Positions 38,533-60,575 of a DNA stretch of 64,000 bases are shown piece after piece; position 1 is the stretch's first letter; each line of letters opens with the position of its first letter. The position numbers and the translations under genes were made by a program. The notes below the pieces were generated by a model. The model made no database searches. It was not told where the DNA came from and saw only the letters and a list, made by a program, of their open reading frames with translations. This stretch comes from a virus (lineage: Duplodnaviria; Caudoviricetes): the IMG/VR virus record IMGVR_UViG_3300042881_004206; one strand, 5' to 3'.

Positions 38533-39873
38533 ATGTATCTAACTGAAGAACTGCAAAAGAAATGGCAACCTGTTCTGGATCATCCAGAACTGGATGCTAT
38601 CAAGGATCCATACAAGAAAGCAGTTACTGCTCTTGTTCTGGAGAACCAACAGCGTGAAATGTCTGCAGCTGCACAGCAACTGAACGAAGCTACTGCTGCA
38701 GCACCAACAAACGTTGCAGGTGGTGTTTCTAACTACGATCCAATCTTAATCAGCCTGGTTCGTCGTGCTCTGCCTAACCTGATTGCTTATGACGTTGCTG
38801 GCGTTCAGCCAATGACAGGTCCTACAGGCCTGATCTTCGCAATGCGCGCTCGTTACAATGCTCAGTCCGGTGCTCCTTCGAACACCAACGAAGCTTTCTT
38901 CAACGAAGCTAATACCATTTTCTCTGGTACTGGTTCTTCTGCTAACCCATACGGCTTCCGTGGTAATAACGCTACTGACGTTGTTACTAACGCTGGTGCT
39001 GATCTGACTGCTAACAGTTATACAACTGGTATTGGTCTGCCAACATCAACTGCTGAAGGTCTGGGTGCAGATGGCAATCCTGCTTTCCAACAAATGGCAT
39101 TCAGCATTGAGAAGGTTACCGTTACCGCTCAATCACGCGCACTGAAGGCTGAGTATTCGTTAGAACTGGCACAAGACCTGAAGGCAATTCACGGTCTGGA
39201 TGCCGAGACAGAACTGTCTAACATTCTGTCTACAGAAATTCTGGCTGAAATCAACCGCGAAGTTATCCGTACAATCTATGCAACTGCTGTTGCTGGTGCT
39301 CAGTACGGTACAACAACTGCTGGTGCTTTCGACCTGGATACCGATTCTAACGGCCGTTGGTCTGTTGAGCGCTTCAAGGGTCTGATTTTCCAAATCGAGC
39401 GTGACGCTAACGTCATTGCCAAGCAGACTCGTAGAGGCAAGGGTAACGTTCTGATCGTTTCGTCAGACGTTGCTTCTGCTATGGCTATGGCTGGTGTTCT
39501 TTCTTATACACCTGCTCTGTCTGCTGACCTGCAAGTAGATGACACTGGCAATACATTTGCTGGTCTGCTGCATGGCCGCATCAAGGTTTACATCGATCCA
39601 TATTTCGGTGGTTATACATCTAATCAAGAACTGGTAACAGTTGGTTATAAGGGTACTTCTCCTTATGACGCTGGTCTGTTCTACTGCCCATACGTTCCTC
39701 TACAGATGGTTCGTGCAGTTGATCAGTTCACATTCCAGCCAAAGATTGGTTTCAAGACCCGTTATGGCATGGTTGCAAACCCATTTGCAACTGGTCTGAC
39801 AAGCGGCAACGGTGCTCTGAACGCTCGTTCGAACGTTTACTATCGCATCTTCGCTGTCAAGAACCTGATGTAA
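38533..39873 (+). CDS. gp23: Major capsid protein gp23
   Basis: 'GVQPMTGPTGLIFAMR', 'RALKAEYS.ELAQDLKA.HGLDAE.EL' and 'FQPKIGFKTRYG'. Confidence 0.99.
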   Translation: MYLTEELQKKWQPVLDHPELDAIKDPYKKAVTALVLENQQREMSAAAQQLNEATAAAPTNVAGGVSNYDPILISLVRRALPNLIAYDVAGVQPMTGPTGLIFAMRARYNAQSGAPSNTNEAFFNEANTIFSGTGSSANPYGFRGNNATDVVTNAGADLTANSYTTGIGLPTSTAEGLGADGNPAFQQMAFSIEKVTVTAQSRALKAEYSLELAQDLKAIHGLDAETELSNILSTEILAEINREVIRTIYATAVAGAQYGTTTAGAFDLDTDSNGRWSVERFKGLIFQIERDANVIAKQTRRGKGNVLIVSSDVASAMAMAGVLSYTPALSADLQVDDTGNTFAGLLHGRIKVYIDPYFGGYTSNQELVTVGYKGTSPYDAGLFYCPYVPLQMVRAVDQFTFQPKIGFKTRYGMVANPFATGLTSGNGALNARSNVYYRIFAVKNLM

Positions 39874-57065: not shown

Positions 57066-57094
57066 TTGACAACACACAAAACCCGTTGTATACT
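57066..57094 (+). promoter_or_regulatory. sigma70 promoter of tRNA operon
   Basis: TTGACA (57066-57071), 17 nt, TATACT (57089-57094). Confidence 0.88.
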
Positions 57095-57113: not shown

Positions 57114-57128
57114 TTTGTAGAGTCTTTT

Positions 57129-57218
57129 GGAAACGTGTCCGAGCGGTTTATGGAACTGGTCTTGAAAACCAGCGTGTCAGAAATGGCACCGTGAGTTCGA
57201 ATCTCACCGTTTCCGCCA
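57129..57218 (+). tRNA. tRNA-Ser(TGA)
   Basis: Cloverleaf with long variable arm, loop CT-TGA-AA, G73 and encoded CCA. Confidence 0.95.
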
Positions 57219-57223
57219 TTAAA

Positions 57224-57315
57224 GGTGAGTTGGCTGAGTGGTCGAAAGCAGCAGTTTGCTAAACTGTCCTCCTCTTTAAACGGGAGCATAGGTTCGAATC
57301 CTATACTCACCGCCA
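57224..57315 (+). tRNA. tRNA-Ser(GCT)
   Basis: Cloverleaf, loop TT-GCT-AA, long variable region, CCA. Confidence 0.93.
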
Positions 57316-57322
57316 AATCATC

Positions 57323-57412
57323 CCCGCCATAGCTCATGGAGAGCAGGAGCGCTTATAACGCTTTCGTCCAGATAAGACCCAGGATGTGGTTCGATTCCAC
57401 ATGGCGGGACCA
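57323..57412 (+). tRNA. Atypical tRNA-Ile(TAT) with 21-nt extra arm
   Basis: Acceptor CCCGCCA/TGGCGGG, D-stem GCTC/GAGC with 5-nt loop, anticodon stem GAGCG/CGCTT with loop CT-TAT-AA, T-arm TGTGG-TTCGATT-CCACA, A73, CCA. Confidence 0.75.
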
Positions 57413-57418
57413 AACAAA

Positions 57419-57496
57419 GGGCCGGTAGCTCATGCTGGTTAGAGCAGTGGACTCATAATCCATTGGTGGTCAGTTCGACTCTGACCCGGCCTACCA
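57419..57496 (+). tRNA. tRNA(CAT), probably Ile2 (lysidine type), otherwise Met
   Basis: Loop CT-CAT-AA. The acceptor has C4-G69/C5-G68 as in TilS substrates. Confidence 0.85.
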
Positions 57497-58499: not shown

Positions 58500-58575
58500 G
58501 GTGATATAGCTCAACTGGTAGAGCACCTCCTTCATACGGAGACGGTTGTAGGCTCGGATCCTACTATCACCACCA
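58500..58575 (+). tRNA. tRNA-Met(CAT), elongator type, divergent T-loop
   Basis: Acceptor GGTGATA/TATCACC, loop TT-CAT-AC, T-loop CTCGGAT. Confidence 0.8.
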
Positions 58576-60500: not shown

Positions 60501-60575
60501 CGCGGGATGGAGAAGTGGCAACTCGCCAGCCTCATAAGCTGGAGATCGCAGGTTCAAATCCTGCTCCCGCAACCA
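60501..60575 (+). tRNA. tRNA-fMet(CAT)-like
   Basis: C1:A72 mismatch, loop CT-CAT-AA, ACCA end. Confidence 0.85.

Follow-up and report, generated by a model that had tools for sequence, protein, structure and literature searches.

Among the sense codons, AUA alone requires a special trick in bacteria, which is either the lysidine introduced by TilS or an adapted IleRS. In ordinary T4-like phages, the decoding of AUA relies on a tRNA-Ile2(CAU) of the lysidine type (Nolan et al., 2006, PMC1524935). A TilS-independent tRNA-Ile(UAU), named 'tRNA-Ile3', was found in Mycoplasma mobile, Bifidobacterium and Neorickettsia (Taniguchi et al., 2013, PMC3575796; tRNAscan-SE 2.0, PMC8450103). It was reported that the E. 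coli-type IleRS (Trp905) charges the UAU anticodon poorly, that the W905R substitution cures this defect, and that AUG is misread on E. coli ribosomes when the UAU anticodon carries no modification (PMC3575796). UAU anticodons also occur on tRNAs with long extra arms. In the allo-tRNAs (Mukai et al., 2017, PMC5389517), the acceptor and T stems are 8/4 or 9/3, and the discriminator is that of Ser identity, either G73 or U73. According to that study, UAU is the commonest allo-tRNA anticodon, the UAU group has 'five-stem-junction structures', and a non-translational role was proposed for the acidobacterial allo-tRNA(UAU) (PMC5389517). In nematodes, nev-tRNA-Ile(UAU) has a Leu-type arm and is leucylated in vitro (Hamashima et al., 2012, PMC3333845; 2015, PMC4300185).

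Here, we describe a UAU tRNA gene in a phage DNA of 64,000 nucleotides (the whole stretch analyzed, called the window in this paper), together with the apparently undescribed two-arm tRNA-Ile(UAU) family to which it belongs. Members of this family consist of a UAU decoding arm, 1-4 nt, a 3-5 bp hairpin with the loop Y-N-G-A-U-N-R, a 5-6 nt tail and the T stem, with a 7/5 acceptor/T-stem arrangement and A73. All of these features are present in the window tRNA, based on its parse and on the family statistics, and it is a new subtype of the family, with C1-G72 and a 5-nt D loop. The explanation that we favor, with a probability of roughly 0.4 for the whole of it, is that of a working AUA-reading tRNA in which the GAU hairpin would act as a surrogate identity element for IleRS.

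The window belongs to a T4-like myovirus, with gp20 portal, gp23 capsid, gp18, gp17 and UvsW. Its capsid protein is closest (62-65%) to those of Methylophilales phage Melnitz and of the Pelagibacter phages Mosig and HTVC008M, and its DNA was found in lake and freshwater metagenomes of 15 studies. ARAGORN detected 22 tRNA genes in the window, between positions 57129 and 60575. The UAU gene stands among 21 ordinary tRNAs and is the third gene of the tRNA operon in this freshwater T4-like myovirus. The parts of the gene, its neighbors and its relatives in cultured phages are located in Table 1.

The gene was called by ARAGORN as a tRNA-Ile(tat) of 90 nt with the anticodon at position 32. In a narrow Rfam scan it matched RF00005 over the full model (positions 1-71) with 45.1 bits and an E value of 3.7e-09. 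It was absent from the output of a wider 4-kb Rfam scan, though 21 other tRNAs were listed there, 20 of which scored above the gathering score, while tRNA-Tyr was slightly under it with 28.5 bits. The Rfam alignment of the UAU tRNA contains two deletions in the D loop (AU-GG-A, 5 nt left), one G inserted before the anticodon stem, and an insertion of 18 nt in the variable region. Direct reading places U8 and A9 after the 5' strand of the acceptor stem, and gives a variable region of 21 nt, TCGTCCAGATAAGACCCAGGA, at 57364-57384. A preliminary description, made from the letters of the window, had claimed a UAU tRNA here with a 5-nt D loop and an extra base before the anticodon stem, which was borne out by ARAGORN, Rfam and direct reading. 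Its 21-nt variable region with a GTC/GAC stem closing CAGATAA was likewise read exactly as claimed. The features of a canonical bacterial-type tRNA are all found in the window tRNA, including the 7-bp acceptor stem, the 5-bp T stem, the GTTCRAnTC T loop, the 7-nt anticodon loop, U33 and a purine at 37. It shares A73 and G27.U43 with E. coli tRNA-Ile2. The window gene is very probably a real and functional tRNA. A different fold was proposed by RNAfold for the window tRNA, in which GUCC/GGAU closes a 12-nt loop next to an 8/4-like acceptor; it suits the window subtype, but it is an alternative conformer at most, because the wider family gives no support for it.

Table 1. Positions of the two-arm UAU tRNA gene, its parts, and related features (positions in the window unless a locus is named).
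Feature	Position	Strand	Basis
Promoter-like site TTGACA-17-TATACT upstream of the tRNA cluster	57066..57094	+	sigma-70-like consensus scan, 11/12 matches; hint only
Complete tRNA gene with UAU anticodon, two arms of anticodon type and an encoded CCA	57323..57412	+	ARAGORN; Rfam 45.1 bits; subtype cloverleaf covariation
Acceptor stem, 5' strand CCCGCCA, first pair C1-G72, partner 57402-57408	57323..57329	+	direct reading; Rfam; covariation
D arm: stem GCTC/GAGC, 5-nt loop ATGGA	57332..57344	+	direct reading; Rfam
A26 and one extra G; sixth G.U pair with T57364 possible	57345..57346	+	Rfam inserted g
Decoding arm: stem GAGCG/CGCTT (G27.U43), loop CTTATAA, anticodon TAT 57354-57356	57347..57363	+	direct reading; ARAGORN; Rfam; stem covaries
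2-nt linker TC between both hairpins	57364..57365	+	direct reading
Second hairpin: stem GTC/GAC (3 bp), 7-nt loop CAGATAA 57369-57375, GAT 57371-57373	57366..57378	+	direct reading; family conservation and covariation
6-nt tail CCAGGA from second hairpin to T stem, about ordinary variable-loop length	57379..57384	+	direct reading
T arm: stem TGTGG/CCACA, loop TTCGATT	57385..57401	+	direct reading; Rfam
Acceptor stem, 3' strand TGGCGGG, discriminator A73, encoded CCA	57402..57412	+	direct reading
Adjacent tRNA(CAT), G1.U72, C4-G69, C5-G68, G27.U43	57419..57496	+	ARAGORN
Ordinary tRNA-Ile(GAT), anticodon loop TTGATAA	58584..58658	+	ARAGORN; Rfam
Two-arm relative in S-SRM01	L295:1501-1590		
Two-arm relative in S-CRM01	L296:1404-1493		
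Two-arm relative in S-SKS1	L297:1496-1586		

A pattern of the D arm and the anticodon loop retrieved 22 viral contigs, each with a tRNA(tat) of 90 or 94 nt and with different tRNA neighborhoods. The cloverleaf of this window subtype (23 loci, 11 distinct rows) was 98.9% paired, with 13 pairs changed on both sides, and was matched by none of 500 shuffles. Another pattern, constrained solely at the UAU and T loops with a long gap between them, yielded more than 118 further viral contigs. In 154 distinct members of the family, the acceptor, anticodon and T stems were 97-100% paired, using all Watson-Crick types, with the exception of pair 31-39 (84%). The pair 49-65 was formed in 99% of the members, as CG, GC, UA or AU, and covaries family-wide, whereas position 8 was able to pair with 65 in only 54% of the family. 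The fold is therefore 7/5, and an 8/4 acceptor/T-stem fold was rejected. A73 was present in 147 of the 154 members; pair 1-72 was unusual, as G.U was found in 61 members, C-G in 56, and only 21 had the standard G-C. Pair 27-43 was G.U in 94. A sixth pair of the anticodon stem is possible in 46% of the family, and the linker between the hairpins has 2 or 4 nt in most members.

The tail between the second hairpin and the T stem has 5-6 nt in 143 of the 154 members; the commonest tail in the same loci is 1 nt for Ser (96/117) and Leu (60/91) and 3 nt for Tyr (26/39). In subtypes with a normal D arm, the tail resembles an ordinary variable loop, e.g., AAGGTT and ACGGT. Normal and shrunken D arms alike are accompanied by the second hairpin, which is therefore no mere patch for the 5-nt D loop of the window tRNA. 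The UAU loop, CUUAUAA, has U33, A37 and a stem of 5-6 bp, whereas the corresponding bases of the GAU loop are A33 and, in most cases, U37; decoding must therefore fall to the UAU arm. Since the UAU arm has the normal junction with the D stem, and the GAU arm the normal junction with the variable loop and T arm, the layout is that of two tandem anticodon-type hairpins.

The second hairpin was compared in an unbiased set of 90 distinct long-armed viral UAU tRNAs, chosen from among the matches listed and blind to the content of the arm. A hairpin with the 7-nt loop Y-A-G-A-U-N-R was present in 86 of these 90 (among the matches listed). Throughout the 86, loop position 1 was Y and positions 3-5 were G, A and U; position 2 was A in 80, position 6 was free, and position 7 was A, G or U in 61, 16 and 9, respectively. 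The stem exists in 36 distinct complementary versions across the family. Its three inner pairs were 99-100% paired in 150 members, and its covariation in these members was 0.707, as compared with 0.165 after shuffling (0/500) and 0.08-0.16 for slid partners. The preliminary description had named an arm that is unconserved or random in homologues as the outcome that would speak against it; the GAU loop proved invariant, and the stem covaries across very divergent members. The second hairpin exceeds chance and is under selection.

These results bear on the idea that a tandem duplication of the anticodon arm left the second hairpin behind as a neutral remnant, or that it is a structural filler, which we regard as hardly credible. 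The look of tandem arms agrees with such an origin: the junction at 26, on the 5' side, is normal, and the tail on the 3' side is as long as an ordinary variable loop. In the window, moreover, the second hairpin and the anticodon stem of the resident tRNA-Ile(GAU) have the same 5' strand, CGTC. Yet a neutral remnant would decay, and GAU is invariant despite the 36 stem versions and near-complete divergence elsewhere; the conservation of the GAU hairpin thus makes this origin an unlikely explanation of its present state.

The converse pattern, CAGATTA-N10-15-T-arm, in which only the loop and the T arm were fixed, gave 120 viral matches. As many as 109 of them were called tRNA(tat) by ARAGORN and 6 more were clear members that ARAGORN left uncalled, which brings the total to 115/120. 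The control consisted of 276 distinct long-armed tRNAs from the same loci, among them those for Ser, Leu and Tyr, whose loops mostly have 3-4 nt; GAT was found in the arm of only 2 of them. The GAU loop is tied to the UAU anticodon in phages. This tie weighs on a further possibility, that the GAU hairpin is a decoy or sponge for a factor targeting the anticodon loop of tRNA-Ile(GAU), such as a nuclease, a toxin or an ileS T-box leader. Phage tRNAs can counter tRNA-targeting defenses, and the loop copies Y32, G34, A35 and U36 of tRNA-Ile. A decoy, however, would have no reason to ride almost only on UAU tRNAs, and A33 differs from the real target. Moreover, we are not aware of a nuclease that singles out the anticodon loop of tRNA-Ile(GAU), and T-boxes are seldom found in the relevant hosts, which are cyanobacterial, proteobacterial and acidobacterial. 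A decoy is thus considered very improbable.

In bacteria, the association between the long arm, UAU and the GAU loop is looser than in phages. In an even draw of 401 Acidobacteriota genomes, 3 had a GAU-type UAU tRNA, and 1 had three copies of another UAU tRNA, whose long arm has 7-8 bp and lacks GAU. The three copies (genome G020; L320, L322 and L323) are identical, with the arm loop CCACAA; they probably represent allo-tRNA(UAU), and a repeat element may carry them.

Pattern searches with the exact anticodon arm and T loop of the window tRNA, or with its T arm and acceptor, gave no matches in viral contigs. BLAST of the window tRNA against cultured phages gave no match either, and to date the window subtype is known from metagenomes only. 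Other two-arm subtypes occur in the cultured cyanophages S-SRM01, S-CRM01 and S-SKS1, whose GenBank records have no tRNA annotation at these places. Two-arm subtypes were also found in bacterial assemblies, mainly of Pyrinomonadaceae and Blastocatellia, often in arrays of up to 34 tRNA genes per 8 kb. Standard annotation overlooks the two-arm tRNA genes, and estimates of phage tRNA repertoires and of AUA-decoding capacity are therefore incomplete.

Some other unusual tRNAs were observed in these loci. In S-CRM01, the intact two-arm tRNA is closely followed on its 3' side by a 25-nt fragment (...CCGCCAGATTAGCGG..., L296:1505-1528), which corresponds to the second hairpin of a different subtype and resembles what is left of an additional two-arm copy. 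Contigs with the window subtype also encode a 74-nt tRNA with the amber-reading CTA anticodon, called tRNA-Pyl by ARAGORN (L001:5547-5620 and L011:7195-7268). An 87-nt tRNA(CAT) with a long variable region, an oversized D region and an arm without GAU was detected at L003:426-512, L019:5236-5322 and L052:7079-7165, and in L003 and L019 it is located about 135 nt from the two-arm UAU tRNA. In acidobacterial arrays (L211, L220, L221, L241, L246, L260, L267 and others), tRNA-Ile(GAT) often has C33 in place of the near-universal U, with the loops TCGATAA, CCGATAA and ACGATAA.

Transcripts were looked for in RNA libraries. Contigs identical to the window begin at 57126-57127, and one of 296 nt, from a single library, is 100% identical to 57127-57422 and covers two Ser tRNAs and the UAU gene. 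The segment 56900-57052 was uncovered in all four RNA runs, but absent cover proves nothing, and RNA libraries can contain DNA. These contigs are a weak hint that the UAU tRNA is expressed from the cluster. No spliced form without the second hairpin was present among the RNA-library contigs listed.

The tRNA cluster contains other genes of interest for the decoding of Ile codons. A tRNA-Ile(GAT) had been listed in the cluster by the preliminary description and is indeed present. Copying of its anticodon stem into the second hairpin was considered across 66 loci, but the similarity was marginal (3.24 vs. 3.02 identities of 6 in shuffled pairings, with 17/1000 shuffles as high), and no weight is placed on it; so slight a likeness also counts against the hairpin as a neutral remnant. 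The tRNA(CAT) directly following the UAU gene has homologues in Acinetobacter T4-like phages that are labeled tRNA-Ile in some records and tRNA-Met in others; judging from its sequence, it could plausibly be a lysidine-type tRNA-Ile2. It is plausible as well that AUA decoding is deliberately redundant in the cluster. A CAT tRNA lies directly 3' of the UAU tRNA in S-SKS1 and in locus L022 too, and about 450 nt downstream of it in S-SRM01. A relative in an RNA library is devoid of the tRNA(CAT), with 57412 joined to 57502. Two more tRNA(CAT) genes have peculiar features: in the one at 58500-58575 the anticodon loop, TTCATAC, is unusual and the T loop, CTCGGAT, lacks TTC, while the one at 60501-60575 has the C1xA72 mismatch, a hallmark of bacterial initiators, without the three G-C pairs usual in initiator anticodon stems.

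The AUA codon is widely used by the phage. In the 44 ORFs of the window, ATA accounts for 306 of 1208 Ile codons (25%), or 17.3 per 1000. At the nine ATA sites of the portal gene, Ile is the aligned residue in 97% of 120 homologues, a figure that is partly circular, since the standard code was used to translate these homologues; the non-Ile remainder is nearly all Met and Val, with no Leu or Ser signal. The gp23 major capsid gene (38533-39873) contains zero ATA codons, vs. 25% of Ile codons in the window ORFs, and this most highly expressed gene seems to avoid AUA. It is probable that the window tRNA reads AUA as Ile.

Among bacterial carriers, tilS was found in 5/5 Pyrinomonadaceae genomes with a two-arm tRNA, and Trp occupies the Trp905 position in 4/4 of their aligned IleRSs. 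The two-arm tRNA was also considered as the sole AUA decoder of these bacterial carriers, which was rejected, as tilS is present in 5/5.

Charging by another synthetase, e.g., by LeuRS via A73 and the long arm, or the lack of any translational use, is improbable. A73 is common to Leu, Tyr and Ile tRNAs, which would be in favor of another synthetase. So would the leucylation in vitro of the nematode class II UAU tRNAs (PMC3333845, PMC4300185). For a non-translational role, Mukai et al. (2017, PMC5389517) report six variants of allo-tRNA(UAU) that failed as Ser suppressors in E. coli, but that Ser-insertion assay is blind to Ile insertion. In addition, the CUUAUAA loop and all stems are kept as in working tRNAs, the gene sits in an operon of 21 ordinary tRNAs, and AUA is heavily used where homologues keep Ile, with no signal of Leu or Ser. 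A GAU loop would be meaningless to LeuRS or SerRS, and the hairpin position and the 7-nt loop are unlike the arms of Leu, Ser and Tyr tRNAs.

In the proposed mechanism, the phage tRNA would read AUA with a UAU anticodon that TilS cannot modify. The two tandem hairpins that replace the single anticodon arm in the family would divide the work: the first (5-6 bp, CUUAUAA), joined to the D stem via position 26, would decode, and the second (3-5 bp stem, Y-A-G-A-U-N-R) would show G-A-U, the main identity nucleotides for IleRS. A Trp-type host IleRS, poor with U34, would charge the tRNA with Ile through the GAU hairpin, and the resulting tRNA would be a portable AUA decoder, independent of host TilS and of an adapted IleRS. 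The GAU hairpin is the obvious candidate because a UAU tRNA in cells with a Trp-type IleRS needs another route to Ile recognition. The preliminary description had suggested that the arm might aid charging by IleRS; the conservation of the hairpin and its tie to UAU fit an Ile-identity role, and from these we infer the charging with Ile and the reading of the second hairpin by IleRS. Tentatively, the GAU hairpin is regarded as a handle for IleRS, and, with slightly more reserve, the molecule as a two-headed tRNA, in which the ribosome may read the UAU arm and IleRS the GAU hairpin as a surrogate anticodon.

A comparable case exists in a related enzyme: the C-terminal domain of archaeal LeuRS reportedly reads the tip of the long variable arm of tRNA-Leu, and LeuRS is a close class Ia relative of IleRS. 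There are also points against the reading of the hairpin by IleRS. Class I synthetases usually approach the tRNA with the variable region toward solvent. A hairpin of 3-5 bp ends well above the normal position of the anticodon, and IleRS would therefore need an unusual docking or an alternative conformer of the junction. The GAU loop has A instead of U at 33 and mostly U at 37, and therefore no t6A, which is a determinant for E. coli IleRS; the length of the second-hairpin stem, moreover, is not constant but ranges from 3 to 5 bp.

It was also considered that the tRNA is a genuine Ile AUA decoder whose GAU hairpin serves another partner or step of AUA decoding, such as a U34-modifying enzyme, the limitation of AUG misreading on the ribosome, EF-Tu, or processing enzymes. 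IleRS would then use A35, U36, A37, A38 and A73. The fidelity problem is real, as AUG is misread by unmodified UAU (PMC3575796). The hairpin is conserved and tied to UAU, evidence that does not identify its reader, and the loop, with A33 and no constant base at 37, is an imperfect mimic for IleRS. On the other hand, it would have to be a coincidence that the invariant triplet is none other than GAU, the anticodon of Ile. To our knowledge, no U34-modifying enzyme or ribosomal site reads the loop of a variable arm. The family spans cyanophages, pelagiphage-like phages and Acidobacteriota, so the other partner would have to be universal. Such a partner is considered unlikely, and recognition of the GAU hairpin by IleRS is the reading retained here.

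If true, this reading would add a third, portable solution to the AUA charging problem in hosts with a Trp-type IleRS, in which one gene gives any host an AUA decoding that is independent of both TilS and IleRS adaptation. It would also represent a natural identity element moved off the anticodon, so that identity is uncoupled from decoding, which is a goal of synthetic biology. The question is open to direct testing in cultured phage-host pairs, for instance S-SRM01, S-CRM01 and S-SKS1 on Synechococcus.

In comparison with the known systems, the two-arm tRNA shares with the M. mobile type a gene-encoded UAU that reads AUA without lysidine, and the same problems of U34 acceptance and AUG misreading. 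The M. mobile type, however, is a class I tRNA with a short variable loop, while the window tRNA has 21 nt with a GAU hairpin; the former is paired with Arg or Lys at the Trp905 position of IleRS and with the absence of tilS, whereas the tested bacterial carriers of two-arm tRNAs are of Trp type and have tilS. Like the tRNA-Ile2(CAU) of T4-like phages, the window tRNA is a phage-borne AUA decoder in a T4-like genome; unlike it, it has an extra arm, and its anticodon is not a CAU that needs host TilS.

No GAU-loop arm on a UAU tRNA was found described in the literature, in which Mukai et al. (2017) was compared by its main text. The allo-tRNA(UAU) resembles the two-arm family in the long extra arm, the UAU anticodon, the 6-bp-like anticodon stem and the occurrence in Acidobacteria and metagenomes, but the two-arm family is 7/5 with A73, and the window tRNA is no allo-tRNA. 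The long D stem and tetraloop of the allo-tRNAs given there stand against a 4-bp D stem and a 5-nt loop in the window tRNA, though some subtypes of the family have a UGGU tetraloop. A GAU loop is not mentioned in the main text (PMC5389517), and part of the allo-tRNA(UAU) set reported in it may overlap with the two-arm family.

The window tRNA is not a normal class II tRNA because its hairpin sits 5-6 nt before the T stem. In class II tRNAs (Leu, Ser and Tyr), the arm ends 1-3 nt before the T stem and has a loop of 3-4 nt, whereas the window tRNA has a tail of 6 nt and a loop of 7 nt; class II tRNAs also have Leu, Ser or Tyr anticodons, and G73 in the case of Ser, as opposed to UAU and A73 here. 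The nev-tRNA-Ile(UAU) is similar in its class II-sized variable arm and UAU anticodon, but it is eukaryotic and nematode-specific, and no GAU loop was reported for it. The archaeal LeuRS/tRNA-Leu system differs in the enzyme, the tRNA and the domain of life, and its arm is not a copy of an anticodon; its likeness to the mechanism proposed here is that of a class Ia synthetase reading loop bases of a variable arm as identity elements.
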